This document shows, piece by piece, positions 3,688-47,276 of a stretch of 64,000 nt of DNA (position 1 is the stretch's first letter; each line of letters begins with the position of its first letter). The position numbers and the translations under genes are program-made. Source of the DNA: a phage; sequence record PX393110.1. One strand, 5' to 3'. The notes below the pieces were generated by a model. The model searched no databases and had not been told where the DNA came from. It was given only the letters and a program-made list of their open reading frames with translations.

Positions 3688-4021
3688 CAGTCAGAAAGTT
3701 ACTGGAGATCAGGAAATCATCCAGAGCTACTTCTGTATTCTTAGGAGTATTGTCTAACTCCCACTCACCCACTCCCAGACGGATCTTAGCCACACCAGGA
3801 GCTATCTCTTCAATAGACAGCTTAGAGCCACCGATGATCTGGAGGCGAAGAGCATTTACAGCTACTGCATACCCAGAGAACGCAGTCTCTACCTGGTGAC
3901 GGAACTCCTGGTCTGAATTAACCTTAGCAGCGTAAGCAGCAGGTTCCATACCCAGTTGCTTAGCATACATCAGATGAAACATGTCCAGGTTAATCTTGTT
4001 ACCAGTAGTCTTCTTAGTCAT
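3677..4021 (-). CDS. hypothetical protein
   Basis: ORF track. GAGGAA RBS. Confidence 0.55.
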   Translation of the reverse strand: MTKKTTGNKINLDMFHLMYAKQLGMEPAAYAAKVNSDQEFRHQVETAFSGYAVAVNALRLQIIGGSKLSIEEIAPGVAKIRLGVGEWELDNTPKNTEVALDDFLISSNFLTAAV

Positions 4022-4520
4022 TTTCGATTTCCTCGGCAGTTACGCCAGTGATGTTTAAATACAGATCGGTCGGTAATTCTGGCAGGGTAGAGACATCCAG
4101 ATTCTCTACGTCCTTGGCCAGAGTTATGTGAGGAGAGTATTCCGCACTGATCTCAGACGGTACCTCCCCAGATGCACGGAGTCGATAGTTAAACGATTGT
4201 AGCAGATCGCTATCGAACGCCAGCACCAGGTAGTTAGCATTCTCACCGAAGATCTCATAGCGAGGATTCTTCAGATGAAGTTTGCTACCTACCAGATCAG
4301 CAATAGTTCCCTCATCCGGAGCACCAGTCCCCGGAGCATACATAAGGGTGCAGTGGTTATCGTGACCGGTATCGAAGTTAAGCTTATCATAATCAGCTAC
4401 TTCAGAGATAACCTGCTTAAGATTATCTATCCAGGCATCAGAGTCTGGACAGAATTTTACCGAGGAGTAACCCTCGTCCACGGACTGTACAAGTCCTAAC
4501 ACTACTTCAGCTTTATTCAT
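4014..4520 (-). CDS. 2H-phosphoesterase superfamily protein (LigT / cyclic-nucleotide phosphodiesterase-like)
   Basis: Two H-x-T/S-x motifs about 75 aa apart (NHCTLMY and PHITLAK), about 168 aa long. The ATG at 4520 lies 3 nt after the upstream stop. Confidence 0.55.
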   Translation of the reverse strand: MNKAEVVLGLVQSVDEGYSSVKFCPDSDAWIDNLKQVISEVADYDKLNFDTGHDNHCTLMYAPGTGAPDEGTIADLVGSKLHLKNPRYEIFGENANYLVLAFDSDLLQSFNYRLRASGEVPSEISAEYSPHITLAKDVENLDVSTLPELPTDLYLNITGVTAEEIEND

Positions 4521-4525
4521 TTTTA

Positions 4526-4825
4526 TCACCATGGCCATGGTAGTTTATTTTCGGGCTCCTGCCTATAGTAGGAGCATTTGATACCCAACGATTCCACAAT
4601 ACTTACAGGAATCTTATCAGTTACTTCAGAGTCTTGATAGATTGGTCCGAATACTGATACGTTTGGATCTTGCAACAGTTCAGATATTAATCCAGCCTCT
4701 TCATAAGTCTCGAAGAATGCTGCGGTGGTATCTGGATTACAGCCGAGACCGGTCCATGAGGTGTAAAACTCGTTTACTCCACAGAGAGCACCGTGCTCCT
4801 TATGCACCACTAAAAATCCCAGCAT
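4526..4825 (-). CDS. hypothetical protein
   Basis: ORF track. The start overlaps the RNase H gene end, so the exact start is uncertain. Confidence 0.45.
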   Translation of the reverse strand: MLGFLVVHKEHGALCGVNEFYTSWTGLGCNPDTTAAFFETYEEAGLISELLQDPNVSVFGPIYQDSEVTDKIPVSIVESLGIKCSYYRQEPENKLPWPW

Positions 4826-5330
4826 CTGTGTATCCTTTAAGTTTATTTCTATACTTAACCATTTCCTGCTTAGCTATCTCATCACAGAGATTATTTACTT
4901 TGTAGCGAGGATTATTGAACTTCTGATGACCTTTGACATGCTTAACCTTAATGGACTTAGGGTTAAGATCGCGAAGCATTTCCATATGCTTATCTATGAA
5001 TTCCTTTAATGCCCATTCGCAATCGCATTGGACGACTACCCTAACACCATCGAATGCTGTCTTAGTCATGGCAAACCATAGGGTCTTCATGATCCCTTCT
5101 AGCTCTGCCCAGTTATTATCTACAGCAGTAAATCCTCCGCGAGTTATATGAGCTCGCTGCTCACCAGGAAGACGAATCCATCCTCCGAAACCAGCAGCCT
5201 TACTCTTATGACAGTACGATGCATCTGAGAAGATTGTTATATAGCCCGCAGGGTCCAGACCGCGTTCGGGAGTACCCTCGAAGTGGATAACTCTACCAAC
5301 ATCTTTCTCACCGATAGCATGTTTCTTCAT
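4800..5330 (-). CDS. RNase H (type 1)
   Basis: The DEDD pattern aligns with E. coli RNase HI: FSDAS (FTDGS), AELEGI (MELMAA), QCDCEW (STDSQY), VKGH...NNLCDEIAK (VKGH..NERCDELAR). Confidence 0.75.
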   Translation of the reverse strand: MKKHAIGEKDVGRVIHFEGTPERGLDPAGYITIFSDASYCHKSKAAGFGGWIRLPGEQRAHITRGGFTAVDNNWAELEGIMKTLWFAMTKTAFDGVRVVVQCDCEWALKEFIDKHMEMLRDLNPKSIKVKHVKGHQKFNNPRYKVNNLCDEIAKQEMVKYRNKLKGYTDAGIFSGA

Positions 5331-6898
5331 TACATATCCACCGTAGTTGCCTGGAACAGACCTACCACCATTTCGTGGGACGGCTTCACGACCGGACTAT
5401 CGAAGTCAATAGAGCTGTTGATGTTCTGGTTAACCATCATCAGGCTACGTACTTCCCAGCAAGCACGATCAGTCAGTACACGGTGAATTGCTGCGGTATC
5501 ACCATCCACGTCCATGTTCTGACCACCCATCGCCATCGGAGGAACCTGAATCTCCTTACCCATGTGAGGTCTGACCTTAAATCCCCATACTGAGTAACGG
5601 TGTAGGGATGGCGCACGGTTCATGAATACCGTAGCATTTTCACACAGTCTCCAGCATACTTCCAGAGCTACTCTGGACTTATTCTTGTACATACGCTGTA
5701 CTTTATTGCTGATGTCGTACATGTTGTACCCTTCGTTAGTCGGGCCACCATATAAGTTCTCCAGCTCACCCAGGATGTCTGGCTGAAGTAATTCGTACAT
5801 CATCTTGAACGGTACACCAAGAGTATCCAGAGGAAGATGCGGAGCCGAAGTAACTACAGAACGACCAGAGTAATCAACACGCTTACCTAACAGGTTACCA
5901 CGAATGCGACCACCCTTGCCTTTAAGGTTATTGATCATCGGCTTAATCAAATTACCGCGATAGTCCTTAGTACCTTCCAGGATTAGTCCGTTAACCATCT
6001 TCTGCATTACAATAGATTCACGAGGAATCAGAGATAACAATGCTTCGCTGGCTTCAGCAGTATCACGAATACTTCTGATACGGATTGCATGGCGCAGGAT
6101 TCGCAGGTAGAGTAAGTTAGTCGGATGATACGACATTACCCCATTACTGATACCGACATCACGGTAGCTCGGAGGATTCACCAGTACTGTAGTGTTATAG
6201 AAGTCGCTGAACTCCGTATAACCACTATTGACTACTGTAGGATCTTCACACTCTTCGATATAGGCTTTCATATCGGCGTGGTTAGCTACCAATGCCTGGA
6301 TAAGACTCAGGAGACCTAATTCCGATGACTCATGCTCGGACATACGACGGATCTTAATCATTACTACTGCGAGGCGCTTCGTGCTATCCTGAACTGGGAT
6401 AGTATTAGAGTAGAACATCGCATACTTCTCACGATCTTCATATTCCGGAAGAGCTGCATTAGACTCACGAACCCGCTCCCGATCATCACCAACCATCTTA
6501 GCTGCCAAACCAGCTTCCTGAACTACGAAGCGGTATCTACCGATAAGGAACTGACCGAACTCTCTCTCTGGAAACCCGAATAACGCAGCCATACGTTTGA
6601 TAGCTAATGGATTCACATAAGGAACGATCGTCTCGATGTGACCCATACGGCGGCGACGGGATTCACGATGCATCGCTACCATACCGCATACATTACACGG
6701 AGGAGCTCCCATAACCAGCTGGTTACCACACTCACACTTACCAGTTACCAGAGGTCCGAATATTCGCTGGCAGAATAGCCCACCAGTGAATGGCTTAGGA
6801 TCATGGAACTTAAGATTATACATGCCCATGTTGGTTACTTCACCACTGGACTCGGCACGGATTACAGCATCAGTTGCAATAGATAACTTTAATTTCAT
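5330..6898 (-). CDS. multisubunit RNA polymerase beta-prime, N-terminal half
   Basis: GLFCQRIFGPLVTGKCECGN (Zn ribbon), RRRRMGHIE, NRAPSLHRYSVWGF, and the catalytic loop NMDVDGD (NADFDGD with all three Asp kept). All are collinear with the N-terminal half of bacterial RpoC. Confidence 0.85.
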   Translation of the reverse strand: MKLKLSIATDAVIRAESSGEVTNMGMYNLKFHDPKPFTGGLFCQRIFGPLVTGKCECGNQLVMGAPPCNVCGMVAMHRESRRRRMGHIETIVPYVNPLAIKRMAALFGFPEREFGQFLIGRYRFVVQEAGLAAKMVGDDRERVRESNAALPEYEDREKYAMFYSNTIPVQDSTKRLAVVMIKIRRMSEHESSELGLLSLIQALVANHADMKAYIEECEDPTVVNSGYTEFSDFYNTTVLVNPPSYRDVGISNGVMSYHPTNLLYLRILRHAIRIRSIRDTAEASEALLSLIPRESIVMQKMVNGLILEGTKDYRGNLIKPMINNLKGKGGRIRGNLLGKRVDYSGRSVVTSAPHLPLDTLGVPFKMMYELLQPDILGELENLYGGPTNEGYNMYDISNKVQRMYKNKSRVALEVCWRLCENATVFMNRAPSLHRYSVWGFKVRPHMGKEIQVPPMAMGGQNMDVDGDTAAIHRVLTDRACWEVRSLMMVNQNINSSIDFDSPVVKPSHEMVVGLFQATTVDM

Positions 6899-8776: not shown

Positions 8777-10291
8777 TTATTTGTTATTCAGATTTAACCC
8801 AGCAATGATCATCTCGGAACGGGTTCCGAAGCTAACATCACCATTAAGCACTGCCGAGGTAAGACGCTGCTTAACGTTACCGTGGCCAATAGACTTCAAC
8901 CAGCTAGGGTGCTTCGTAGGGATAGCATCAGCTTTAATCGCCAGTACCTCACCCTTATCACCCATGCTGCGAACACCGATTCGTCCGTTATTCATCTTAA
9001 CCAGATCAGTACAACCACGAGCAATGATCTCATGGTGAATCGATGCGATACCGATACCGATGTCGTCGAAGATGTGCTTAAGCTGGATTGATGCTAGCTC
9101 TGCACCCTTAATAGCCGACCCAGCTTCGTGAGCAAGATCCGTGATGCACTTATACTTAGACTCGGATACCTGAGCTACCGCAGTACCTCTACCACCTACC
9201 GTCTTCAGGATGTCAGCCAAGGTATTACTTACCGAAGTACCGAATTCCTTAAGAGTAGTCGAGCCAGATGTATGCTTACCACGAAGACCAGCCTGGGTAG
9301 ATGGTTCGGAGATATGCTGCGCCGACGCCGTTCCAATACCGAAGTTAATCGGGAAGAAGTTAGCTGGTTTAGCCGGATCCATACCGCAGCAATGCTGACA
9401 TACCCCACCCTTAGTCGATTCACAGGTAATCGGGCTAAGGACTTTAACGTTACCCTCTTCATCAGCTAACTGATCAACATTCTCCTTAGTGATCAGTACT
9501 CGATCATTAGTGAATCGATACAGTGCCGATTTCTTAGGTAGGGTAATCACTTCCTTAGTTCCGCAATCTTCTTCCACAATAGACAGCTCACGAGAGCAGT
9601 TAACCAGCTGACGAGCGAACCAGCCAGTCGCAGGTACCAGGAAGAAGTTACCAGCCAGACCCTTACGAGCAGGTCCGCAGGTGTTGAAGTAGTTGATAGG
9701 AGACAACCCGGAGCTTAAGTTCTCCATAATCGGCATCGGCATGATCTTACCAGTCATACCTACCAGAAGACCCTTAGCTACTACCATCGAGCGAACCTGG
9801 GGAGGAGATACACGAGCGCCAGATACACCCATCGCATACAGAGGATTATGACGGTCTACCTCTTTGAACCAGCGATCAGTACATTCGTTGATCACCTTAT
9901 CAGCAGCCACCAGACGATCCTCGTACTTCATCTTACCGAGTTCCTGGGTCATTGATGGGAAGTCGATACCGAAGTCAAACTTAGTGTCGTCATAGCACAA
10001 GCTAAGTCCAGACATAGTTGCTTTATGGAACCCGAACTGCTGCAACTTATGGAGTCTACGCCCAGCTACTTCCGGAGTGTAGTTATTATTGATGTGAGAG
10101 ACGATCTTCGCAGATTCCTTCTTATCGATTTCTTTTTCTGGAAGATAGCCACTGATTTCCCAAATAAACAGTCGACCGATAGTAGTTTCTTTAGGACCAT
10201 CAGAGAAGTAAAAACGCACCGGAGTGGTGTAGGTTGCTTCTTTCATATCAATAAGACGGTGTAATTCATTCAAGGACTTTGATACGATCAT
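8777..10291 (-). CDS. multisubunit RNA polymerase beta-prime, C-terminal half
   Basis: TTIGRLFIWEI, GLSLCYDD, SGARVSPPQVRSMV, bridge-helix-like CGPARKGLAGNF..TGWFARQLVN, EEDCGT, GVCQHCCG, trigger-loop-like AQHISEPSTQ, and C-terminal EMIIAGLN. All are collinear with the C-terminal half of RpoC. Confidence 0.85.
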   Translation of the reverse strand: MIVSKSLNELHRLIDMKEATYTTPVRFYFSDGPKETTIGRLFIWEISGYLPEKEIDKKESAKIVSHINNNYTPEVAGRRLHKLQQFGFHKATMSGLSLCYDDTKFDFGIDFPSMTQELGKMKYEDRLVAADKVINECTDRWFKEVDRHNPLYAMGVSGARVSPPQVRSMVVAKGLLVGMTGKIMPMPIMENLSSGLSPINYFNTCGPARKGLAGNFFLVPATGWFARQLVNCSRELSIVEEDCGTKEVITLPKKSALYRFTNDRVLITKENVDQLADEEGNVKVLSPITCESTKGGVCQHCCGMDPAKPANFFPINFGIGTASAQHISEPSTQAGLRGKHTSGSTTLKEFGTSVSNTLADILKTVGGRGTAVAQVSESKYKCITDLAHEAGSAIKGAELASIQLKHIFDDIGIGIASIHHEIIARGCTDLVKMNNGRIGVRSMGDKGEVLAIKADAIPTKHPSWLKSIGHGNVKQRLTSAVLNGDVSFGTRSEMIIAGLNLNNK

Positions 10292-20497: not shown

Positions 20498-20807
20498 AGA
20501 CTAAACTCTGACCCGCATGGATGCGTACTGCATGGTTCTTGTTAGAGTTAGTCAGACGAATCCACTTACCTTCGTCTGTAGAGAATACCTGAGCAGTTAA
20601 GCCCAGGTAAGATACAGAAAGATTAGAGATAGAGTCGACAGTTACCGTACTATCTACCGGAAACTCTACCGATGAGCCAGCTCCAACAATGTAGCCACTC
20701 TTACGCAGCTTCATTGGAGCAATACGACTACTGTGCTGATCGTCAGCACCAATTGTCCGAGCGAACGAGCTCTCAACGTAAACAGTTTCAGGAATATTAA
20801 TCTGCAT
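20487..20807 (-). CDS. small beta-barrel protein, possibly dUTPase-fold
   Basis: ATG at 20807. FSTDEGKWIRLTNSNKNHAVRIHAGQSLV loosely parallels dUTPase motifs 3-4 (GVIDSDYRGE..l.N.....i..GdRIAQL). Weak call. Confidence 0.3.
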   Translation of the reverse strand: MQINIPETVYVESSFARTIGADDQHSSRIAPMKLRKSGYIVGAGSSVEFPVDSTVTVDSISNLSVSYLGLTAQVFSTDEGKWIRLTNSNKNHAVRIHAGQSLVYGN

Positions 20808-21396
20808 TGCCAATAGTCTCTTTAACCAGGTGCTCTATTGAACTACCATGTGCCATATGGAGAAGAGACTGGAGAGTACCCATCCATACATCATCACTCA
20901 CTTCGTCTTTGTACTTATTGAAGCAGGTACTGAAGATGTTGCGGCAGTTCTCCAGCTCGCTTTCGCCAAAGAAGATGTTACCCATGCTGAACTCAGTCAT
21001 GATCTCACGAGATACCGCAATAGCATCTGCAACTTTACAGATGAACTTAGCTTCGGCAGATGCAGGAGTGCGGAAAGTAGGAAGTACCTCTTCCCAGATT
21101 TCCTGCTCAACTTTATTCAGAGTCTCTTTTAACTCTGGGAAGCGAGCCTTAGCAGTGTAGGGGACATCACCTGTAAAGATCTCTGGAATGTCGTGAACCA
21201 ACGAGTACTGATTTACTTCCAGACCCTGCTCAGCAGTTAAAAATCCATCCATCACCAGTTTCTGAACAATCAGAGTAGAGTAGTAAGTAACTTCGAAGCT
21301 ATGCTCCGAGATAGTAGAGCGATGAGACAGTACTTGCTTACCTGCGAAACGATTCACGTTATTGGTACACACTGGTACCTTAAAAAGATCTTTCAT
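20797..21396 (-). CDS. HD-domain 5'-deoxynucleotidase (YfbR-like)
   Basis: TISEHSFEV ... LVHDIPEIFTGDVP match YfbR (ENVSEHSLQV ... LYHDASEVLTGDLP). Confidence 0.7.
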   Translation of the reverse strand: MKDLFKVPVCTNNVNRFAGKQVLSHRSTISEHSFEVTYYSTLIVQKLVMDGFLTAEQGLEVNQYSLVHDIPEIFTGDVPYTAKARFPELKETLNKVEQEIWEEVLPTFRTPASAEAKFICKVADAIAVSREIMTEFSMGNIFFGESELENCRNIFSTCFNKYKDEVSDDVWMGTLQSLLHMAHGSSIEHLVKETIGNAD

Positions 21397-21415: not shown

Positions 21416-21448
21416 AAAAATAAAGGTATGGAAGTTGCCTCCCACACC
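21416..21448 (-). terminator. promoter-proximal hairpin + U-run
   Basis: GGTGTGG...CCATACC followed by TTTATTTTT. The stem is 7 bp with one G-U pair that is valid only in minus-strand RNA. Confidence 0.4.
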
Positions 21449-21479
21449 TTAACAGCCTTTCGAGCCCTAAAAAGAGCGG
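21449..21479 (-). promoter_or_regulatory. class-1 motif copy 3
   Basis: CCGCTCTTTTTAGGGCTCGAAAGGCTGTTAA. It abuts the upstream stop (21480) and lies 52 nt before ATG 21396. Confidence 0.6.
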
Positions 21480-22553
21480 TTATTCCAGAATAAACGGAGA
21501 CTTATCCCCGAGGCGGTTCGCGACCCATTTCACGAATGGTGAATTAACCAGATGCTCGCACTGGATAGACATGTGAGCTCCAGTAGTCTTACATAGATAA
21601 TGAGCGCCTGCTAACCACATCATCACATCCAGAGTTGATCCTGGTTGGAACTCTCGACCAACATCTTCCATTACGTATTCTAGAATACTGTGATCGCTAT
21701 TATAACGAGAAGCAGCATCTTCAAGAGTAGCGATGTAATGCTGGAAGTAGGTACGGATCTTATACCAGGAATTAAGTGATCCGAGATCAATCGTAGTTAC
21801 CGGAGCTTCATTAATGTCGTCAACATAAGCTCGGATATTACTTACCTGCTTCTTGATGTTCGACACTTCCGGATACCAGTGGAGATCATCCGTCATCACC
21901 ACATAGTTGCCCATATCTACTTTGAGCATAGTTGCGATGATTTCCTGGATGATCGTGAACTCCACCAGATTAACGTTAGTCAATCCCCAGATTAGATCAT
22001 TACTACGGTTGAATACCGTGCAGTCCAGACCACCATTACGGTACTTAAACGATAGAGCAATGTTGCAGATCATATCTGCGGTATTGATGCTGCCAATGCT
22101 GTTTACCAGACCTACATCAGAATCACGGCTGGGATCGTGAATAGTAGCCACGCACTTACGGTTACCCAGGTCAGAACGGAGGCGGTCTGTTACAGTCTGG
22201 AGTTGATCGTAGTTATACAGACGCTCACCGTAAGCACCACGCCAGGTAACCATATCATCGCTAAACATCTTAGCGCGAGGAACCATAATCGACATCCAGT
22301 TATCGATTGCATAGCCACCAGACAGTACCCACAATACTTCCCCCATAATTCCGAGGATATTGTCTTTACGTTCTGGATGAGCCATCCAACGATTAATCGG
22401 ATTACTTAACTCAACTACAGCATGACCGATGGATACTACCGCCGAAGAGTTAACAGAAGTTCTGGACTTCTGCAACTCACCAGCCTTATCCATAGTATTG
22501 ATGCTGTTAACCAGGATTTCAGTATTACTGTTACCGCGAATTACCGAGATCAT
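21480..22553 (-). CDS. thymidylate-synthase-family pyrimidine dNMP hydroxymethylase/methylase homologue
   Basis: GEVLWVLSGG (ELLWFLQGD), YGERL, DQLQTVTDRLRSD..NRK (DQI..V...L..DP.SRR), catalytic-Cys segment DMICNIALSF, and NRSNDLIWGL (ThyA QRSCDVFLGL; T4 gp42 MRSNDVVFGF), DDLHWY. Extra C-terminal extension of about 100 aa. Confidence 0.7.
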   Translation of the reverse strand: MISVIRGNSNTEILVNSINTMDKAGELQKSRTSVNSSAVVSIGHAVVELSNPINRWMAHPERKDNILGIMGEVLWVLSGGYAIDNWMSIMVPRAKMFSDDMVTWRGAYGERLYNYDQLQTVTDRLRSDLGNRKCVATIHDPSRDSDVGLVNSIGSINTADMICNIALSFKYRNGGLDCTVFNRSNDLIWGLTNVNLVEFTIIQEIIATMLKVDMGNYVVMTDDLHWYPEVSNIKKQVSNIRAYVDDINEAPVTTIDLGSLNSWYKIRTYFQHYIATLEDAASRYNSDHSILEYVMEDVGREFQPGSTLDVMMWLAGAHYLCKTTGAHMSIQCEHLVNSPFVKWVANRLGDKSPFILE

Positions 22554-23272
22554 TTAGAGTCCTTACGCACTGAATCAATAGACTTAACTGCAGAGGACAG
22601 TAACTCCAGACGGGCCTCCTGAGGGATCATACCAGATGGCTCGTTCAGGATCATAATACCTTTACCAGTATTAGTAAAACGAGCTGTGATTGATCCAGGA
22701 TACACCGGATGATTCAGAGTTACAGAATTACACAACGCAGCACCGAATCGCTCCTCGTAGGCACGCATAGTTACCTTAAGGAGAGTAGAACTGACTGCTA
22801 CAGAGTATTCAGGATCAACAACACGGAAGTTATTGTCCTCAATACTCTTATCCTTCGTATTGAAGAACAGAGTCATGTTATAATAATCAATAGACTCGTT
22901 ACTGAGACGTAATGCCTCATCACGAGCTTCCTGGCTGGCAAACATACTGTTATGCAGCAGGAAGTAAACGTACGAATCGAATACCGCACGATCACTGACG
23001 ATCAACTCGCCACGATTGTAGGCATCCTTGAACATCTGAGTTCGCTGACGAATAAGACGCAGCTGGAACTCTACCGCTTCCATAGGATCTTCTACAGCTA
23101 AGCGCAGAATATCCATATGGGATGTTACTCCCAGAGGAAGATGGTCACGAGTCTGTACTGCACGGAAGGTACATTCGGTTGATTCTTCCCAACCTTTAGC
23201 CAGGGTAGATTTACCGGTACCCTGCGCACCAGACATAATTACACTGTAGCCTGGGATACTATAGTCTCTCAT
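22550..23272 (-). CDS. P-loop nucleotide (dNMP/deoxynucleoside-type) kinase
   Basis: P-loop SGAQGTGKST and DRAVFDSYVY (dNK/TMPK-like). ATG at 23272 with GGAGAG RBS. ATGA overlap with the next gene. Confidence 0.6.
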   Translation of the reverse strand: MRDYSIPGYSVIMSGAQGTGKSTLAKGWEESTECTFRAVQTRDHLPLGVTSHMDILRLAVEDPMEAVEFQLRLIRQRTQMFKDAYNRGELIVSDRAVFDSYVYFLLHNSMFASQEARDEALRLSNESIDYYNMTLFFNTKDKSIEDNNFRVVDPEYSVAVSSTLLKVTMRAYEERFGAALCNSVTLNHPVYPGSITARFTNTGKGIMILNEPSGMIPQEARLELLSSAVKSIDSVRKDSK

Positions 23273-23304
23273 TATTCTCTCCAATTAAGAATCTTTCCCA
23301 CATT

Positions 23305-23361: not shown

Positions 23362-24333
23362 CTAGCTAAACTTATACCAGCGAGGTCTCATACGGATCTC
23401 GTGATTCAGTTTATGTAGTTTCGAGAATTCGCAGAATGAGTTGGTGAACATCTGGCGAGTATAGAATCGCTCATCCTCTGGCATGAAGTGGAACCATTTC
23501 TCCGGTTCCCATGAATACCCGAAATGTGCACATATCTCTTTGATGTTCTGATACCACCATTCCACGAATACCTGATAACCACAGGGAGGATTCTGGTCAT
23601 TAATCATGTACCATACCCCATCCTGAGTCCCAGGTCCACATACGATAGCGTCATTATCTGTATACGCAGTCTCTTTAGAGTAGGACATAGTTGCCCAGCA
23701 TTGATATGCCATGAACGGACCTAATCCAGATACCTGTAACAGATGCTCGATAGCCTCGGTAGCGAACGGAGACTTCCATGCCCATAAGATAGGATCACTG
23801 TAGGTCTTCACCAGATAGGCTCTGGCAGCTACACTGTACTTAATATCCTCTGGACATACTTCATTAGCCATCTTAACTGCTGTGCTAAGGAAGTAGGCAT
23901 TTGATTGCTGTGGAGCGGTGAACGGAGGACCATCCTCATAACGACGTAGCTCTTCGCGACCCATGTTATGTATGTCGTCATAGCTCATCTCATAAAGAGG
24001 AAGGACTCTGCGGAAGCGATCCATATATGAATCACCACGGTTTATCATCTGGAAGAGTACTACATTAAGTGCTTTACTCTCCCAGCTTAAAGAATCGTTC
24101 TCCAGAATGTTCTTAATAGCCCACACTGTTTCACGATCGTGCTTACGGAACACGTTAGTGAATTTGAACTTACTAATCCACTTATGTTCCGTCCACGGAG
24201 GAGGCAGCTTAAGCACCTCCTTCTTATAATAAACCTCTGTACGTTCACGGTTATACTCCACATACTCCCGTAACTCCTCAGGATTTATCATCCCAAGGAG
24301 TCCTTCGTAATGCAGACCTAACGGTGTTGACAT
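23362..24333 (-). CDS. hypothetical protein inside the modification island
   Basis: ORF track. TAATG coupling to the upstream glycosyltransferase. Trp/Tyr-rich. A DNA base-modification enzyme (for example pyrophosphorylase-type) is suspected from context only. Confidence 0.35.
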   Translation of the reverse strand: MSTPLGLHYEGLLGMINPEELREYVEYNRERTEVYYKKEVLKLPPPWTEHKWISKFKFTNVFRKHDRETVWAIKNILENDSLSWESKALNVVLFQMINRGDSYMDRFRRVLPLYEMSYDDIHNMGREELRRYEDGPPFTAPQQSNAYFLSTAVKMANEVCPEDIKYSVAARAYLVKTYSDPILWAWKSPFATEAIEHLLQVSGLGPFMAYQCWATMSYSKETAYTDNDAIVCGPGTQDGVWYMINDQNPPCGYQVFVEWWYQNIKEICAHFGYSWEPEKWFHFMPEDERFYTRQMFTNSFCEFSKLHKLNHEIRMRPRWYKFS

Positions 24334-25412
24334 TAAAGAATACCTTCTTTGGTAAAGTAGTCGATTACTTCATCCTGAAGTTCTTGTGCGTAATCCTTGC
24401 GCAGATACAGATTCTCATACTGATGTTTCAGCAGAGCATCACGATCTTTCAGTTTCTCTGCAATCTCCGCATTACTGGAGACGATCAGAGGAGCCAGCAG
24501 CTCTTCGGGGACGCCGCTCCGGATTATTGTTCCGGCAGCATCTTTATCCACCAACATCAGAGTACCAGAGCTCAGGTATTCATAATAACGGTTAGGTGGG
24601 CTGGTATAGAACGAGTTACTAGAGTTCCAGTCTTCAATAAGCAGTACCGCTGCGTATTTAGCCACTTCATCCAGCATCTCTGACAGCTTAAACTTAGGCA
24701 GCCAGTTAATAGGAGCAGCAGGCCCCAGCCACTTACGTTCTTTAGGATCCAGCTCTTCCCAGTTTTCCTGCTCGTAGCCGTCAAATCCAGCAAGACCACC
24801 AGTATGTTTAGCGATAGACATCTGAGCTTTGTAGCTAGGCACCGACATAAACAGTTCCAGACCATCCTGCTGGGAGAAGTACTGAGTGAACTTATGGAAG
24901 CGACCTTCACGAGCAGCACCGTAATACAGCAGGCTATTGTCTGGTTTATCAGATGAGCCGTAGCGAGGCTTACGACCAGGAACGTAGGTAAGACGGTTCC
25001 AGTTAATGTGGTGATAGTTCTCTTCGCTAGGGGAGTACTGATTACCCCAGGAAGTACGCTCGAATGCTGCTACTACTTTAAATGTCGTAGCTGCTGTGAT
25101 GTGTCGCCACTGCGGACCCTGGATACGCATACGTGATGAATAATCTTGACCAATCCAGTAAAACTTAGCTCCGAGGTCCGCCTGGTCTACCCAGAATTTA
25201 TACATCTCATCGCGGAACTTACAGAAGGTAGGAACACCATTGACGGCGATGATCACGTCATATTTGGTGCCATCTTCCATAGCCTTAACAAACTTAGGAG
25301 TATCATCCAGCAAGTCCGCCTGAAGTCCGTAGGCTAACCAGGATGCCAGAGTGTTACTGGCGATGATGGATTTATCGCTGCATGGCGAAAAGTTAGTTAC
25401 TGCAATTTTCAT
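24333..25412 (-). CDS. GT-B glycosyltransferase resembling T4 DNA beta-glucosyltransferase
   Basis: From memory of T4 BGT: MKIAVTNF (MKIAIINM), YDVIIAVN (YDRLIVVN), LLYYGAAREGRF (VIYGGSFRSGQR), AAVLLIEDWNSSNSFYTSPPNRYYEYLSSGTLMLVDKD (AALIIGDKNYNDNFITLRVWETMASDAVMLIDEE). Same length class (359 vs about 351 aa). Confidence 0.6.
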   Translation of the reverse strand: MKIAVTNFSPCSDKSIIASNTLASWLAYGLQADLLDDTPKFVKAMEDGTKYDVIIAVNGVPTFCKFRDEMYKFWVDQADLGAKFYWIGQDYSSRMRIQGPQWRHITAATTFKVVAAFERTSWGNQYSPSEENYHHINWNRLTYVPGRKPRYGSSDKPDNSLLYYGAAREGRFHKFTQYFSQQDGLELFMSVPSYKAQMSIAKHTGGLAGFDGYEQENWEELDPKERKWLGPAAPINWLPKFKLSEMLDEVAKYAAVLLIEDWNSSNSFYTSPPNRYYEYLSSGTLMLVDKDAAGTIIRSGVPEELLAPLIVSSNAEIAEKLKDRDALLKHQYENLYLRKDYAQELQDEVIDYFTKEGIL

Positions 25413-25440
25413 ATTTAATTTCTCCGTAGGCTGTCACAAT

Positions 25441-25470
25441 GTAACAGCCTTTTAGCTCATCAAAGAAGCG
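25441..25470 (-). promoter_or_regulatory. class-1 motif copy 5 (variant)
   Basis: CGCTTCTTTGATGAGCTAAAAGGCTGTTAC, 28 nt before ATG 25412. The upstream stop lies inside the motif. Its 3' block forms the hairpin AGGCTGT/ACAGCCT. Confidence 0.5.
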
Positions 25471-26494
25471 AATTAGCTGATGCCCAACTCAGCCACTTAT
25501 CATTGAGATCAGTTAAGTAGGAATAGTCTTTGTTTAATCCGAATACCGTACGGTTAGTTCCATCGAACTTCATTACCCCAGCACCAGGAGCTCGGATAAT
25601 TGCATCTTCGGTAGCCGTACAATACTCTTTCAAGTATTCCTGGATGTTGGGACGAATACGACGGAACGAGCTATCTGCAGAGTCATAGTGGAACATATCT
25701 GCACAATGCCACTGTACGTAGGACTTATCTGGACGGCTAAGCAGCTCATTACGAGTTACCATATCTTTCGGAGAGTAGCCTAGCTTAGCTACGGTGACTT
25801 CGTGAATACCACCGCCATTAGAAGAGGTGTCCATTAACCAGTTCTCATCCCAGTAGAACGAGCTACCAGTACCGGTTACCTGGCCCACTTTCCATCCCAT
25901 CGCCATACCTTTAAACAACAGGTAGCAATCCTCACCTACAGTGAGTTGCTGGAAGGTCTTATCGAACAGCCAGAACATCTTCTCGCTAGTCTTGACCATA
26001 ATACCCAGGTCAGTAGCCGGAGCAGTGTTATTATGGGACTGACGATCGCAGAGTTCAACAATCTTGTAGTTACGGTTCTTGAAGCTACGGACGAACGCCA
26101 TCTCAAACTCAGATCCCTCGAAGTCGATAATGGACCGATCCAGATGGAAGATATCGTCGGCGAACCAGACATCATCATCCACGAAGTAGCAGATGTCTGG
26201 GCACCAGTCCTGCTTCTCCATTACAATCCATGCTTTATCCAGAGCATGGGCACGGATTTCTCCGATTACCGGATTTTCGTACTTAGGGCTATGACAGAAA
26301 TTAAATTGCTCATCCCCACCAAACTGCTCTTCCAGAATTGCCTTATCTTCTTCGGAGGCATCCTGAATAAAGTAGAAGAAGCGATACTCAATAGAGTCGT
26401 CAGTCTTTTTAGCATCTTTGAACGACTGAATCTGACGGAGTACCGACTTCAGACGATGATAGGTTGGGATGATAAAAGCTACTTTGGTGGTCAT
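25460..26494 (-). CDS. GT-A (GT2-like) glycosyltransferase
   Basis: N-terminal VAFIIPTYHRLKSV and the DXD-type motif FVDDDVWF. Confidence 0.65.
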   Translation of the reverse strand: MTTKVAFIIPTYHRLKSVLRQIQSFKDAKKTDDSIEYRFFYFIQDASEEDKAILEEQFGGDEQFNFCHSPKYENPVIGEIRAHALDKAWIVMEKQDWCPDICYFVDDDVWFADDIFHLDRSIIDFEGSEFEMAFVRSFKNRNYKIVELCDRQSHNNTAPATDLGIMVKTSEKMFWLFDKTFQQLTVGEDCYLLFKGMAMGWKVGQVTGTGSSFYWDENWLMDTSSNGGGIHEVTVAKLGYSPKDMVTRNELLSRPDKSYVQWHCADMFHYDSADSSFRRIRPNIQEYLKEYCTATEDAIIRAPGAGVMKFDGTNRTVFGLNKDYSYLTDLNDKWLSWASANSLL

Positions 26495-26500
26495 AATTAT

Positions 26501-27112
26501 TTATCCAATTTGACGAACTAAGCGAAACCCTTCGGCGTACGGCCACTGGGCGGAATATCCACGTAAGGTGGCTAGGGCTAAGATACTCTGGGTATCTCGG
26601 TCTGACTTAATCTGGGAGTCGAATCGTCCCATAGCCTGGCACTTACACTCAATATCGTCCTTATTCAGACGCTCGAAGTAATTAGGTTCCATCTGACCGA
26701 ACTGGGTCAGGGACTCGGCATACTCATATTCCAGGATAAGCCAGTTATACGCTCGGAGAGCTACACGAGCAGCATGATTAACTAGTTGATGGTCCTGGTG
26801 TAGGCTACTGAACGGAATATAGACTACATCCGGCCTGATTTTAGCAACATAGTCCGCAATATCCTTAGCCAATTGCGGAATATCCTTCTGAGTCATACCA
26901 TCGCCTGTGGAGGCATCGTTACGCTCCAGGCAATGTACTTCTTTGATATTCGGATAGACACCGAATGCTGCTTCGGCTTCGCCACGACGGGTCTCGTCCG
27001 GAGCAGTTACTTCGAGGATGAAGAATTGGTCATCGCGGAATTTGCTCATAATACCTCCGCAACCCAGAATCTCATCATCGTGATGTGGGCTGATAATCAG
27101 TCGTGACTTCAT
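26501..27112 (-). CDS. PIG-L/LmbE-family N-acetyl-sugar deacetylase
   Basis: IISPHHDDEILGCGG (family motif PHPDDE..G.GG) and the downstream SLHQDHQ metal-binding motif. Confidence 0.75.
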   Translation of the reverse strand: MKSRLIISPHHDDEILGCGGIMSKFRDDQFFILEVTAPDETRRGEAEAAFGVYPNIKEVHCLERNDASTGDGMTQKDIPQLAKDIADYVAKIRPDVVYIPFSSLHQDHQLVNHAARVALRAYNWLILEYEYAESLTQFGQMEPNYFERLNKDDIECKCQAMGRFDSQIKSDRDTQSILALATLRGYSAQWPYAEGFRLVRQIG

Positions 27113-27129
27113 TATTAATCCTCGCTACA

Positions 27130-27163
27130 CAAAAATGGGGTTAGGCCGTAGAGACCTAACCCC
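27130..27163 (-). terminator. promoter-proximal hairpin + U-run
   Basis: GGGGTTAGG-N9-CCTAACCCC followed by ATTTTTG. It lies between class-1 copy 6 and ATG 27112. Confidence 0.45.
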
Positions 27164-27179
27164 GTACGCCTCTGACACC

Positions 27180-27210
27180 TTAACAGCCTTTTAGGTCATC
27201 AAACAGGCGG
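27180..27210 (-). promoter_or_regulatory. class-1 motif copy 6
   Basis: CCGCCTGTTTGATGACCTAAAAGGCTGTTAA, 67 nt before ATG 27112. The BCCT stop lies inside the motif. Confidence 0.55.
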
Positions 27211-28581
27211 AGTTTCCTTAGCCAAGAATACTTTAGGTACAAAGATCTTGAGGAACCCGAATAGAATACACAATACCCCAATCAGTACCGGAACAGCCGA
27301 TACAGCTACCAGAGTCTTCGTTACAGTTACTACGTCGCCACCTGCCCAGTTAAGTGCAGCAGCAACTACACCCATGCTTACAATCCAGAATACACGAGTT
27401 CTAGGAGCGGTCATGGACTCTACCGTAATACCTGCTGAGTCATGACCTGTAATAAAGAACAGGATCACAGACACGAGGGTAATTACCGAGAATATCCATC
27501 CGCCTGGGAAATTAGCCAGAAGCTGGAAGATATCCTGAGCACCATGTTGTAGACCAGCTACACCGAATACGGTAAACCAGACGTTACTGATGATGGTAGG
27601 GAACAGTACACATCCGAGGATCAGTTCGCGAATAGTACGGCCGTAAGAGATACGTGCCACAAACGCTCCGACGAATAATGCCCAACCTACCCAGGCTGCA
27701 TAGTAAGCATAAGGCCAGCTAGCCAGCCATTGCTTCTCTTCAGCAGTACTGCCGATGTTTACTGACATAGGAATAATCTGGAGCAGATAGCTACCAGAAT
27801 AGGTGATGGTCTTCCAGAGGTATTCGAAGAATGTACCACTTACAGCAACGAATGCCATAATAGATAGAGCTACGATTACATTATATCTGGATAACCACTT
27901 AACCCCACGATCGACACCAGTTACGGCACTAAGTACAGTACCCAGAGTCAGGAGCGCGATAATGGTGTAAGGACCAACATCCACTCCCAGGAACTCTTTA
28001 AATCCGGAACTGATCGGGCCTACTGCGTAGACGAACGACAGGGTTAAGCCTATGATGGTAGAGAAGAGTAAGCTTATCGTATTAAGGTTATTCAGAGCTC
28101 GGGACTTGAATAACTGATTAAGCGGACGGTCTTCACCACGTACATGCAGTAAGTACCCGAATGCCACCCCTACGACTGCATAAACTGCCCATGCGTTAAG
28201 TCCCCAGTCAAAGAAGGTAGTTACCATATTCTGACGTTCGGACATACCCTCCTGCTGATGGTACATAGGTTCGAGTACACCATAATAAATCATGGATACA
28301 CCCATACCGGTACTAAACATCATGGAGTAATAGGTAAAGCGATTATATTTCGGAGCACCTTTACCCAGCTTAATGTTACCATGCTTGCTGAATACAAAGA
28401 ATGCCAGGAACGCTAGGAAGATCAGCGAAGACCAGGTAAATATGAATCCATACTGAGATATGAATACAGACTTACTCCAGTCCATTACAGCACCAAACTG
28501 GGTGGGAGCTAACATAATGGCGAGTATGATACCCACCGTTACTAGCACCGTCCCCCAGGTAACTACCTTTGAATCTGACAT
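27199..28581 (-). CDS. BCCT-family (betaine/carnitine/choline-type) transporter
   Basis: Polytopic membrane protein. SWPYAYYAAWVGWALFVGAFVARISYGRTIRELILGCVLFP aligns with the BCCT signature region (BetP [41 protein letters not shown]). Confidence 0.8.
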   Translation of the reverse strand: MSDSKVVTWGTVLVTVGIILAIMLAPTQFGAVMDWSKSVFISQYGFIFTWSSLIFLAFLAFFVFSKHGNIKLGKGAPKYNRFTYYSMMFSTGMGVSMIYYGVLEPMYHQQEGMSERQNMVTTFFDWGLNAWAVYAVVGVAFGYLLHVRGEDRPLNQLFKSRALNNLNTISLLFSTIIGLTLSFVYAVGPISSGFKEFLGVDVGPYTIIALLTLGTVLSAVTGVDRGVKWLSRYNVIVALSIMAFVAVSGTFFEYLWKTITYSGSYLLQIIPMSVNIGSTAEEKQWLASWPYAYYAAWVGWALFVGAFVARISYGRTIRELILGCVLFPTIISNVWFTVFGVAGLQHGAQDIFQLLANFPGGWIFSVITLVSVILFFITGHDSAGITVESMTAPRTRVFWIVSMGVVAAALNWAGGDVVTVTKTLVAVSAVPVLIGVLCILFGFLKIFVPKVFLAKETPPV

Positions 28582-28584
28582 TGA

Positions 28585-29493
28585 TTATTCCTCAATTACG
28601 CCCTTAGCGATTAACTGGCGACGGACGTATGCGTAGCCAGCAGGTGAAGTAGCGAGGACGATGTCCGCACTACGGAAGTTGGTTTCGATATAGAAGCACT
28701 CCTGAAGATCCCGCGTACAGAAGAGCTCAGTGCTCATCATACCCTCGCGTACGTTACATGCGTCTGCAACGAATTGCGCAACATCTTCGAAGTGGTCTAC
28801 CGAATGACTATAGCCGAATCCACGGGCATCAGTAGATATAACGTAGTTATGGCAGTACGGAGTGAAGTCAGTATCTTCGTAGGATTTACCCTGGATAGTG
28901 AAAATATCTGCATAATCCTTGAACCCGCTCGGGCTAACCAGAAGATCCCAGGCAACTACCATACCGTCGATAACATCTGCTTGAAGTACCAGAGAAGTAG
29001 TATATTCGTCCGGCGCCTTATCACAGACCAAAATTGGGGAGTCCCCCAGAAGGTCCGACATAGTGCCTGCACCCTTGCCCCCGTGAACACGATCACGGCG
29101 TACAAACGCCTCCTGAGGCTTCTGGTACAGTCTAAACGACGGTACAATCAGCGAATCAGGCATAGTTCCCAGATTAGCTTCGGAGCGAAGGCAGGATAAT
29201 TGGTCAGCTTTAGACCACGTACTTTCGATAGCGTGCAGATCGTTACCGATTTTGGTATAGATGTAGCTTTCCGGATTGCGGTACTTACCCTGATTCAGCT
29301 CTTCGATAACCGAGTCGAAATAAGGAAGTCGTACTGATCCCTCACGAGGAGCAGTTAACGCTACTGAACCATGCTTGGTATGATCCTGATCAACTACCAT
29401 AACCTGGTCCAGACTTACACCCATCTTAAGAATCTGGGATAGTGTAGCTGCTGTGTGGTTAGTGCAGCCAATCATCAAATCTAACTTCTTCAT
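28585..29493 (-). CDS. ATP-grasp-like ligase
   Basis: Gly-rich loop RVHGGKGAGT and the C-terminal CFYIETNFRSAD (E-x-N-x-R Mg-ATP motif of ATP-grasp enzymes). Moderate support. Confidence 0.45.
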   Translation of the reverse strand: MKKLDLMIGCTNHTAATLSQILKMGVSLDQVMVVDQDHTKHGSVALTAPREGSVRLPYFDSVIEELNQGKYRNPESYIYTKIGNDLHAIESTWSKADQLSCLRSEANLGTMPDSLIVPSFRLYQKPQEAFVRRDRVHGGKGAGTMSDLLGDSPILVCDKAPDEYTTSLVLQADVIDGMVVAWDLLVSPSGFKDYADIFTIQGKSYEDTDFTPYCHNYVISTDARGFGYSHSVDHFEDVAQFVADACNVREGMMSTELFCTRDLQECFYIETNFRSADIVLATSPAGYAYVRRQLIAKGVIEE

Positions 29494-45392: not shown

Positions 45393-46184
45393 TCAATACC
45401 GTGGGTCGGTATCCTGATAATCGCGAATCAAGTCATAGACGAGCACATCCAGACGAGTAGCATCTTCACGCTTCATGCGGGTAGGTCTGTACATATGAAT
45501 ACATACACAGTGCTTAGACCATACCTTAGCAGTCTGACGTTCCGTAAGTTCTTTACGGTCGACGATGTACTTCTCGAATGCGTGATAAGAGATAGGCTTT
45601 GATACTTCGATATATTGGCACATATCGAGGAATTGCGGGTAGTCGTCAGTCAGGTAACGACTGAATACATCCTGGTAATAGGAGTAGTTAGGGAACTTAC
45701 CACCATTTTCCAGAGATAAAGCATGAGTCTCTATCTCCTTCAGCATCAGAGACATGAATGCCTGATTATTGCTGGGGGAGGTCCACATGTTGATTTCGCA
45801 GTAGTCTAACCGAGGGGAATAAACGCGTACCTGAGTCTCGTGAGGAGTGTAGGTTTCGTGAGGGCTTCGGATAAAGAGTGTATCAGCATCAACATAGGAG
45901 TAACCACGAAGATCCATCATTACCTGAATCTTGAGTCGCAGGTAATCACATACAGAGGCCATCTTAGCCTTAGTCTTCAGGATATTATACGCTTTCTCCA
46001 TGATAGGATCTCTGGCGAATAAATCCTGGATCATAATGCATCGGCACCCTTCGATAATGTTTTCAGTATTATCGATCACCAGCACATGGTCCTTAGGTCC
46101 ATATTTCTGTAAGGATTTAATGCATTCCCGAACATGGATAGGCATCTTTGGTCCTACCCAAAGCTGGAAATAATTCTGACTCAT
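45393..46184 (-). CDS. GT32-like (DXD, Gly_transf_sug-type) glycosyltransferase
   Basis: QLWVGPKMP..., MASVCDYLRLKIQVMMDLRGYSYVDADTLF (family pattern SD..R...L...GG.Y.D.D). GAGGT RBS. Confidence 0.55.
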   Translation of the reverse strand: MSQNYFQLWVGPKMPIHVRECIKSLQKYGPKDHVLVIDNTENIIEGCRCIMIQDLFARDPIMEKAYNILKTKAKMASVCDYLRLKIQVMMDLRGYSYVDADTLFIRSPHETYTPHETQVRVYSPRLDYCEINMWTSPSNNQAFMSLMLKEIETHALSLENGGKFPNYSYYQDVFSRYLTDDYPQFLDMCQYIEVSKPISYHAFEKYIVDRKELTERQTAKVWSKHCVCIHMYRPTRMKREDATRLDVLVYDLIRDYQDTDPRY

Positions 46185-46848: not shown

Positions 46849-46982
46849 TAATTAGGGACCCGATTATTCCACTTAGCTGCCATCCGTTCGGGTCAACACA
46901 GATCGTTCCAGGTCTTAGGCATCATACCAGACCGTTTCAGTACACTCGGATTATTAGTTCCCGGTGACCATTTAAAGATGGT

Positions 46983-47055
46983 GGCCCATACTGGTTTCGA
47001 ACCAGTGACCAATCGATTATGAGTCGACTGCTCTCACCACTGAGCTAATGGGCCG
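46983..47055 (-). tRNA. tRNA with CAU anticodon (Met elongator or Ile2/lysidine type)
   Basis: Hand-folded cloverleaf: acceptor GGCCCAT/ATGGGCC, D arm GCTC..GAGC, anticodon arm GTCGA-CTCATAA-TCGAT, T arm ACTGG-TTCGAAA-CCAGT, discriminator A. CCA is not encoded. Confidence 0.85.
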
Positions 47056-47199: not shown

Positions 47200-47276
47200 T
47201 GGTACTCCCTACAGGATTCGAACCTGTGACCAATAGCTTAGAAGGCTACTGCTCTATCCAGCTGAGCTAAGGGAGC
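47200..47276 (-). tRNA. tRNA-Arg (UCU)
   Basis: Hand-folded cloverleaf: acceptor GCTCCCT/AGGGAGT, D arm GCTC..GAGC, anticodon arm GTAGC-CTTCTAA-GCTAT, T arm ACAGG-TTCGAAT-CCTGT, encoded CCA. Confidence 0.85.

Follow-up and report, generated by a model that had tools for sequence, protein, structure and literature searches.

A remote homologue of T4 beta-glucosyltransferase and a probable GT-A partner in a predicted thymidine-hypermodification cassette of an IME392-like Escherichia coli phage

Do two adjacent genes of a phage both encode glycosyltransferases, and what would their products modify? The stretch of phage DNA that raises the question (64,000 nucleotides, record PX393110.1; hereafter the window, in its full length) carries two open reading frames (ORFs) that an earlier note, made from the sequence alone, had described as different glycosyltransferases in tandem, one resembling the beta-glucosyltransferase (BGT) of phage T4 and the other belonging to family GT2.

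24333..25412, minus strand: ORF1, 359 amino acids (aa), ATG start; predicted GT-B DNA glycosyltransferase homologous to T4 BGT
25460..26494, minus strand: ORF2, 344 aa, ATG start; orphan, probable GT-A-fold glycosyltransferase

With glycosylated bases in their DNA, phages are protected from restriction enzymes and CRISPR; such bases also block sequencing, and T4 BGT is used in the epigenetic mapping of 5-hydroxymethylcytosine (5hmC or hmC). The account towards which we lean is that the pair sits in a thymidine-hypermodification cassette of an IME392-like E. coli myophage, where it would glycosylate 5-hydroxymethyl-deoxyuridine (5-hmdU) in DNA step by step, one of the sugars being N-deacetylated.

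Between positions 21000 and 30500, the window is 96.5% identical to Escherichia phage vB_EcoM_IME392 (116 kb; hereafter IME392) and 94.4% identical to phage EP_H11 (111 kb). The genes of the transferase region are all labelled hypothetical proteins in the two records. Purifying selection against these two relatives is strong on both ORFs, with ratios of nonsynonymous to synonymous differences (pN/pS) of 0.02-0.04 for ORF1 and 0.05-0.07 for ORF2, and both are real genes.

ORF1 and T4 beta-glucosyltransferase

The ordered blocks that the earlier note had listed for T4 BGT are present in ORF1 (an MKIAVTN start, then KYDVIIAVN, YYGAAREGR and AAVLLIEDWNSSNSFYTSPPNRYYEYLSSGTLMLVD), and the resemblance is borne out by profile, fold and active-site residues. 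Searches with the single sequence did not detect it: phmmer found no match in PDB, and neither PHROGs nor NCBIfam revealed a relationship with T4 BGT. The Pfam BGT model gave no match at E <= 0.1, Glyco_trans_1_2 at E = 0.017 was the only Pfam match, and no Pfam model covers the ORF1 family. Direct BLASTP comparison with T4 BGT (from AF158101) produced a colinear alignment of 211 residues (E = 0.008).

A usable family was obtained only from an exhaustive HMMER search of 1.84 billion representatives, which returned 288 relatives; 122 of these make up the family profile (alignment A3). T4 BGT was the sole significant match of this profile in PDB (E = 1.2e-7), from profile positions 4-295 of 306 and chain residues 7-346 of 351. 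With hhalign, the family aligned to T4 BGT over 283 columns (probability 95%, E = 3.7e-8), with about 17% identity in aligned columns (49/283). The AlphaFold2 (AF2) model built on A3 reached a mean predicted local distance difference test score (pLDDT) of 92.1 and a predicted template modelling score (pTM) of 0.89. When this model was compared with PDB by Foldseek, T4 BGT entries took the first three ranks (E = 2e-13 to 8e-11, TM 0.62-0.67), and other GT-B enzymes (T4 AGT, GtfC/Gtf3, BshA) followed from 1e-7.

ORF1 residues D90, R168, R171, D261, R275 and E278 align with BGT D100, R191, R195, D258, R269 and E272, respectively. All six are invariant or nearly so in the family; among the 122 members, D90, R168, R171, R275 and E278 are 96-100% conserved. 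From structural work on BGT, we take R191, R195, R269 and E272 to be UDP-binding residues. D100 is the catalytic base of BGT according to Pyle et al. (bioRxiv 10.1101/2023.12.21.572611), in line with the title of PDB entry 1NZD. Judged by profile and predicted structure, ORF1 is thus a genuine remote homologue of T4 BGT, of GT-B type, with a resemblance beyond chance that is visible at these two levels. Its BGT-type active site is intact and, judged by the gene context, its acceptor would be DNA.

In 50,697 phage records, tblastn matches of ORF1 were confined to IME392 and EP_H11, with none elsewhere at E <= 1. Two diverged members of the family, used as queries, also found full-length matches in cultured phages in IME392 and EP_H11 only; one of them additionally matched Cronobacter phages S13 and LPCS28 and Citrobacter phage Ci1, though only in part and at the C-terminus.

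With respect to T4 BGT and to shorter family members (about 300 aa), an insertion of some 45 residues sets ORF1 and its closest relatives (339-360 aa) apart. It spans residues ~195-240 (window 24693-24830) and is partly modelled with low confidence (residues 208-213, pLDDT < 50).

ORF2, a probable GT-A enzyme

Both motifs reported for ORF2, IIPTYHR (residues 8-14) and DDD (residues 106-108), are present, and they do not vary in paralogues of 24-28% identity. Membership of ORF2 in GT2, however, was not supported by any profile or sequence search at any threshold. Of the proposed tandem, a T4 BGT-like GT-B enzyme and a probable GT-A enzyme are therefore retained, but not the GT2 membership. ORF2 had no match in Pfam and NCBIfam even at E <= 10 and none in PHROGs, scans of viral and metagenome contigs yielded no homologue, and tblastn against the phage records found nothing at E <= 1 beyond IME392 and EP_H11. 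Two word-indexed searches of a collection of 5.8 billion sequences returned three clusters of homologues. A paralogue was discovered by comparing a related locus (L003) with the window, and two further diverged members came from another (L095). This paralogue family (24-28% identity; L003:2728-3750, L095:3591-4595) was missed by the word-indexed searches.

The alignment of seven ORF2 sequences (A6; lowest identity 24%) has 41 invariant columns, including R14, D106-D107-D108 and G187-E188-D189-x-Y191. ORF2 thereby has the N-terminal P-x-Y-N/H-R, the DxD and the downstream ED catalytic motifs of GT2/GT-A enzymes. The spacing between these motifs, 92 and 80 residues, presumably fits a GT-A enzyme. 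The same R...DDD...EDY pattern is reported for JGT-like phage GT-A DNA glycosyltransferases, which carry R..DDD..EDY/F motifs (bioRxiv 10.1101/2023.12.21.572611).

Profiles of four, five or seven ORF2 sequences gave nothing significant against PDB. At E <= 10, the seven-sequence profile had two matches, the GT2 enzymes TarS (E = 0.63) and ArnC (E = 1.4), neither of them significant and both in register at the N-terminus. The L095 paralogue matched Glycos_transf_2 at E = 0.098 (13 bits vs. a cut-off of 23.3). Alignment by hhalign of two ORF2 alignments (A2 and A6) against 39 control proteins was underpowered. An AF2 model from four sequences was poor (pLDDT 45.7, residues 109-344 below 50); its residues 1-108 form a moderately confident beta-alpha-beta sheet ending at DDD. 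Foldseek matches of this model were weak (E = 1e-3 to 3e-2, about 110-140 columns), mostly to GT-A enzymes. A relationship with a phage baseplate hub protein (8eon, E = 0.03-0.09) was also considered and deemed a chance match. From the invariance of the motifs in the paralogues and the fold matches of a low-confidence model, we regard it as probable that ORF2 is a GT-A-type glycosyltransferase of an orphan family.

A predicted transcription unit with a hydroxymethylase

The two genes lie in a row read in the order PIG-L, ORF2, ORF1, HMUDK_hel, kinase-like and thymidylate-synthase-like (TS-like) gene. The elements around them are as follows.

27137..27163, minus strand: strong terminator-like hairpin upstream of the PIG-L gene, upstream limit of the unit
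26501..27112, minus strand: PIG-L/LmbE-type sugar N-deacetylase (6.7e-14), weakly BshB1-like; PHHDDE and HQDH metal motifs read off the sequence
23362..24333, minus strand: stand-alone HMUDK_hel protein (4.8e-35; formerly aGPT-Pplase clade 1, M6 gp55 type)
22550..23284, minus strand: P-loop protein resembling kinases of (deoxy)nucleoside monophosphates, (d)NMPs; probable 5-hmdUMP kinase
21480..22553, minus strand: thymidylate-synthase-family enzyme, probable dUMP hydroxymethylase
21423..21450, minus strand: strong terminator-like hairpin downstream of the TS-like gene, downstream limit of the unit
20797..21396, minus strand: YfbR-like HD 5'-deoxynucleotidase, downstream of the unit; probable removal of canonical dNMP

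No hairpin of equal strength lies between the two bracketing ones, and the stop of ORF1 overlaps the start of the HMUDK_hel gene by 1 nt. Because of these hairpins and this overlap, the PIG-L to TS-like genes are predicted to be a single transcription unit, in which the transferases would be co-transcribed with the hydroxymethylase. A scan for sigma-70 promoters was uninformative (15 found vs. 18 expected). The minus strand carries genes from position 1 to about 50 kb, among them PolA, helicases, a topoisomerase II pair and split RNA-polymerase beta'-like genes.

Synonymous divergence from IME392 amounts to 0.24-0.44 for HMUDK_hel, ORF1 and ORF2 but only to 0.03-0.05 in the genes on either side (TS-like, kinase and PIG-L). 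As the former values are far above the latter, this suggests that the transferase cassette (window 23362-26494) was exchanged via recombination.

The base to be modified

We then examined which base the neighbouring enzymes would supply. At the position of N177 of E. coli ThyA, the TS-like protein has an Asn, shared with the ViI-type (PhiSH19) and PaMx11-type (ZC01) enzymes, whereas T4 gp42 (dCMP hydroxymethylase) and the enzyme of one ORF1-family locus (L053) have an Asp. This Asn at the Asn/Asp specificity position disfavours hmC as acceptor. The best annotated or characterised relatives of the TS-like protein are ViI-type dUMP hydroxymethylases (41% identity), and ViI-like phages make 5-hmdU-derived bases (PMC5889632). 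The enzyme is probably a dUMP hydroxymethylase.

HMUDK_hel, the current Pfam name for aGPT-Pplase clade 1, is a marker of thymidine hypermodification. To our knowledge, no function has been assigned to it since 2013. In ZC01, gp13 is an HMUDK_hel member encoded between the 5-hmdU DNA kinase and the hydroxymethylase, and gp09 is an amino-acid:DNA transferase (AADT). M6 gp55 is dispensable for the in vitro reaction of gp54 and gp51 (PMC8989533). Among the cassette proteins, HMUDK_hel is all that was found of a 5-HMUDK/AADT pathway, with no HMUDK_HMUD1 and no ADDT match.

The kinase-like protein has weak Pfam matches to AAA_28, dNK and Thymidylate_kin, and not to HMUDK_HMUD1. Since it holds the same place beside the TS gene, we considered it as a divergent 5-hmdU DNA kinase. 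This was rejected: with the DNA kinases of ViI-type (PhiSH19) and PaMx11-type (ZC01) phages it has the P-loop alone in common, and a homologue in Acinetobacter phage Ab1-TPeters lies in a kinase-TS-HD-primase-helicase-PolA block with no modification cassette. For these two reasons, the protein is most likely a nucleotide kinase, probably a 5-hmdUMP kinase. Another homologue occurs in RP13. Ab1-TPeters, a 110-kb phage (L091, PP763253.1 52448-61988), shares the order of kinase, TS-like, HD, primase, helicase and PolA genes with the window and has no HMUDK_hel or transferase cassette beside the kinase, so that it might be used as a naturally cassette-free comparison.

IME392 and EP_H11 have been listed as probably T-modified by two independent papers, on the grounds of a related PolA fused to uracil-DNA glycosylase (UDG), a dCTP deaminase, a TS homologue and aGPT-Pplase1; neither found a 5-HMUDK or mentioned the glycosyltransferases (PMC12686479; 10.1101/2025.03.26.645540). 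We found no paper in the literature that characterises the DNA of IME392 or EP_H11. The uracil-type Asn of the hydroxymethylase and its closeness to ViI-type enzymes, the presence of HMUDK_hel, the nearby YfbR-like nucleotidase and the published prediction all indicate that the acceptor is most likely 5-hmdU or a derivative, not hmC.

Gene context of the ORF1 family

To broaden the comparison, we counted neighbouring genes in 81 ORF1-family loci, 80 from a scan of IMG/VR viral contigs plus L003. An HMUDK_hel gene occurs in 43 of the 81 and a TS-like gene in 42, often adjacent to each other; 50 loci have one or both. An HD nucleotidase (YfbR-like) is found in 29. These three kinds of genes usually lie within a few kb of the transferase, on the same strand. 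In the remaining 31 loci, ParB_N (19 loci) and a Tet_JBP dioxygenase (17 loci) lie directly upstream of the transferase, and radical S-adenosylmethionine (radical-SAM)/SPASM genes are frequent. ParB-linked phage dioxygenases are thymidine dioxygenases (PMC13229309). This context therefore ties the ORF1 family consistently to enzymes predicted to create a hydroxymethyl-pyrimidine, mostly of the uracil type.

A radical-SAM/SPASM gene (loci L024-L084, e.g. L062:1349-2389, and L046:11680-12648) is present in 27 of the 50 loci with a TS-like and/or HMUDK_hel gene as well as in ParB/Tet_JBP-type loci, and it is absent from the window. The common module of the ORF1 family may do chemistry beyond glycosylation.

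The block of PIG-L, ORF2-like, ORF1-like and HMUDK_hel genes was found in four lineages: the window, L003, L092 and L095. Identity to the window is 75% (L003) and 40% (L095) for ORF1, and 63% (L003), 62% (L092) and 37% (L095) for ORF2. The L003 and L095 cassettes add a GT32-like gene, the ORF2 paralogue, a phosphatidylserine-decarboxylase-like gene and an ATP-grasp-like gene, to which L095 adds a methyltransferase. The genes of the window concerned by this comparison, all outside the unit, are listed below.

27199..28581, minus strand: full-length BCCT-family (betaine/choline/carnitine) transporter (Pfam E = 4e-92), upstream of the unit
28585..29493, minus strand: 302-aa protein with no family match, present in L003 and L092
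29595..30335, minus strand: SAM-methyltransferase-like protein, weakly UbiG-like, with a counterpart in L095
45393..46184, minus strand: 263-aa GT32-like protein, candidate third glycosyltransferase, with QLWVG..P and CDYLRLK..GYSYVDAD motifs

The earlier note had also placed a third, GT32-like glycosyltransferase at 45393..46184. The ORF exists and has GT32-type motifs, but its Pfam support is sub-threshold: the window protein matches only Caps_synth (E = 0.12), and its homologues, which lie inside the cassette in L003 and L095, match Gly_transf_sug at E = 2.2e-3 (L003) and at E = 4.3e-4 with 21.4 bits vs. a cut-off of 23 (L095). Up to four putative transferases together with tailoring enzymes would fit a variable, oligosaccharide-type decoration. 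As the pair is kept with PIG-L in four lineages and is joined in relatives by the GT32-like gene and the ORF2 paralogue, it is plausible that the two transferases in tandem decorate a DNA base with more than one sugar.

The BCCT transporter is kept in L003 and L092 and absent from the L095 cassette. The 302-aa protein resembles, and that weakly, only an NAD(P)-dependent oxidoreductase (E = 0.019).

Proposed pathway

The stepwise glycosylation of 5-hmdU, which we hold to be somewhat more probable than all other accounts together, would proceed as follows. By homology, the TS-family enzyme, the dNMP-kinase-like protein and the HD nucleotidase would replace dTTP by 5-hydroxymethyl-dUTP, which the phage PolA would incorporate. 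ORF1 would then flip the modified base out of the duplex and transfer a sugar from a UDP-sugar to the hydroxymethyl oxygen. If this sugar is an N-acetylhexosamine (HexNAc), PIG-L would remove the N-acetyl group and leave a cationic amino sugar. Pairings of a GT-B enzyme with a PIG-L-type one are known from BshA/BshB, MshA/MshB and PIG-A/PIG-L, and it is this logic that leads us to propose the deacetylation step. ORF2, as a probable GT-A enzyme using Mn2+ and a nucleotide-diphosphate sugar (NDP-sugar) via DDD, would add a further sugar, and the GT32-like protein and the methyltransferase may elaborate the glycan chain. The product would shield the phage DNA from host nucleases.

A more specific version can be put forward only tentatively. 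A dUMP hydroxymethylase, a stand-alone HMUDK_hel and a BGT-like transferase form a widespread, uncharacterised module that occurs in at least 43 viral contigs. Its product would be a "phage base J", with a sugar O-linked directly to 5-hydroxymethyl-uracil (hmU). The clade of the window would extend and N-deacetylate it to a cationic amino-sugar glycan by means of the orphan GT-A enzyme and PIG-L, with HMUDK_hel as a DNA-binding or base-presenting partner. Among the 50,697 phage records searched, the IME392-like coliphages are the sole cultured carriers of the module.

Several points weigh against the glycosylation of 5-hmdU by this pair. We infer the acceptor, the donor sugars and the order of action. 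No glycosyltransferase is matched significantly by ORF2 in sequence or profile searches, and the poor ORF2 model (pLDDT 45.7) limits the weight of its fold matches. Locus L053 pairs an ORF1-family gene with a gp42-like enzyme of the dCMP-hydroxymethylase type, with Asp, so base specificity varies within the family. Most other ORF1-family loci carry a radical-SAM gene instead of a second transferase, and the tandem arrangement is therefore clade-specific. The BCCT transporter and the 302-aa protein are not accounted for by the pathway. Finally, the presence of HMUDK_hel could mean that a non-sugar group is attached first.

Alternative explanations

This last point leads to the most serious rival, which we consider unlikely, namely that the sugars are carried, as in SP-15 and YerA41, on a linker or some other group that is put in place beforehand, perhaps with HMUDK_hel assisting, and that ORF1 and ORF2 glycosylate this appendage. 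The phage PolA is of the UDG-fused SP-15/YerA41/RP13-like group, in which characterised members bear linker-phosphate-oligosaccharide thymidines (PMC12686479; 10.1101/2025.03.26.645540); SP-15, YerA41 and Carin-5 have their sugars on a pentyl-type linker with phosphate and not directly on hmU (PMC12686479). These three phages share with the window the related polymerase, a predicted T modification and clusters of glycosyltransferases and deacetylases near the polymerase (PMC12686479). The occurrence of the kinase homologue in RP13 and the co-transcription of HMUDK_hel, which has no assigned role, with the transferases point the same way. However, the cassette has no recognisable 5-hmdU DNA kinase, amino-acid:DNA transferase or enzyme for building a linker, and linker or phosphate chemistry is not indicated in the window. 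ORF1 keeps the active-site residues of BGT, an enzyme that acts directly on a hydroxymethyl-pyrimidine. Moreover, the tblastn matches of ORF1 and ORF2 at E <= 1, confined to IME392 and EP_H11, include none of these phages. A further difference from SP-15, YerA41 and Carin-5 is that the window cassette showed no genes for sugar-nucleotide synthesis.

The transferases, PIG-L and the BCCT transporter could also make or modify something other than DNA: a small molecule (a GlcN conjugate of the bacillithiol or mycothiol kind), a virion protein or a host surface glycan. Pairs of a GT-B and a PIG-L enzyme characterise the small-molecule pathways of BshA/BshB and MshA/MshB, ORF1 has BshA among its fold matches, PIG-L is weakly BshB1-like, and a BCCT transporter lies in the cassette. 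Nevertheless, this is very unlikely. The best profile and structure match of ORF1 is a DNA enzyme, T4 BGT, with a Foldseek E-value 5-6 orders of magnitude better than that of BshA, and the genes are apparently co-transcribed with a hydroxymethylase, among replication genes. TS-like and/or HMUDK_hel genes in 50 of the 81 loci, and ParB (19) and Tet_JBP (17) genes directly upstream in most of the other 31, also argue for DNA, and the transporter is missing from the L095 cassette.

The least probable of the three is T-even-like chemistry on hmC with a second glucose added as in T2 and T6, which the homology of ORF1 with T4 BGT and the minority of ORF1-family loci with a gp42-like dCMP hydroxymethylase and Asp at the specificity position (L053) would favour, but against which stand the uracil-type Asn of a hydroxymethylase that groups with ViI-type dUMP enzymes, the thymidine-hypermodification marker HMUDK_hel, the dCTP deaminase of IME392 and EP_H11, feeding dUMP (PMC12686479 Table 1), and the finding of no gp42-like protein among the window ORFs examined. 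The analogy with the second glucosylation of T2 and T6, drawn before, is thus plausible as far as a multi-sugar decoration is concerned, whereas the hydroxymethyl-cytosine that it implies is probably wrong.

Comparison with known systems

We compared the window, read as a 5-hmdU-glycosylating cassette, with characterised systems. T4 BGT (PDB 1BGT/1C3J/1NZD; CAZy GT63), the best structural match of ORF1, shares with it the GT-B fold, homology along the full length of the profile, the catalytic Asp (D100 = ORF1 D90) and the counterparts of R191, R195, R269 and E272. Each of the two is encoded beside a pyrimidine hydroxymethylase. In contrast to T4 BGT, ORF1 has a uracil-type hydroxymethylase and HMUDK_hel as partners and a likely acceptor in hmU rather than hmC; besides its insertion and its low identity of about 17%, it also differs in having been missed by Pfam and single-sequence searches.

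Sequential phage glycosyltransferases, BGT-like GT-B and JGT-like GT-A enzymes, build mono- to trisaccharides, HexNAc included, on 5hmC (bioRxiv 10.1101/2023.12.21.572611). In the 5mYOX- and ThyS-associated phage clusters, GT-B enzymes are often ThyS-linked (Pyle et al., bioRxiv 10.1101/2023.12.21.572611; Cell Rep 2024) and a further likeness is that members of the ORF1 family adjoin ParB/Tet_JBP genes. The characterised clusters act post-replicatively on 5hmC, whereas the predicted route of the window is pre-replicative and of the uracil type. The window also adds a PIG-L deacetylase and HMUDK_hel, its ORF2 is of an orphan family, and it comes from a cultured E. coli phage.

Base J, made by the kinetoplastid JBP hydroxylase and JGT, belongs to the class of product predicted here, in which the 5-hydroxymethyl-uracil of DNA carries an O-linked sugar. 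The motifs of ORF2 are similar to those reported for JGT-like phage enzymes of GT-A type. Unlike in base J synthesis, hmU would arise here from dUMP before replication and not by a dioxygenase acting on DNA, and the first transferase is probably a GT-B enzyme.

The pathways of ViI, M6, PaMx11, SP10 and PhiW-14 (Lee et al. 2018, 2022) have a dUMP hydroxymethylase and HMUDK_hel as neighbours, like the window; the order in ZC01 is kinase, HMUDK_hel, TS. In place of a recognisable 5-hmdU DNA kinase, amino-acid:DNA transferase, pyridoxal-phosphate (PLP) enzyme or radical-SAM enzyme, the window has glycosyltransferases and a deacetylase.

Phage DNA glycosyltransferase cassettes are known; here, in an E. 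coli phage that can be cultivated, the chemistry to which a BGT homologue is linked is that of thymidine and not of cytosine. If the cassette does glycosylate 5-hydroxymethyl-uracil, it would provide an easily grown E. coli phage system for sugar-modified thymidine and candidate reagents for 5hmU labelling. It could also give a first functional handle on the orphan family of ORF2 and on stand-alone HMUDK_hel (aGPT-Pplase1).

Other features of the window

Finally, we looked at further genes of the window. RNA polymerase Rpb1/beta' domains were detected in two minus-strand ORFs, at 5330-6898 (domains 1-2) and 8777-10291 (domains 3-5). In this phage of about 115 kb, they make up a split pair resembling the beta' subunit of multisubunit RNA polymerases. 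A 174-aa protein encoded at 4014-4538 (minus strand) matches the Acb1 anti-CBASS family (E = 2.7e-6). Next to the GT32-like gene, an ORF-poor stretch carries tRNA-Met (CAT) at 46979-47054 and tRNA-Arg (TCT) at 47200-47276, both on the minus strand.

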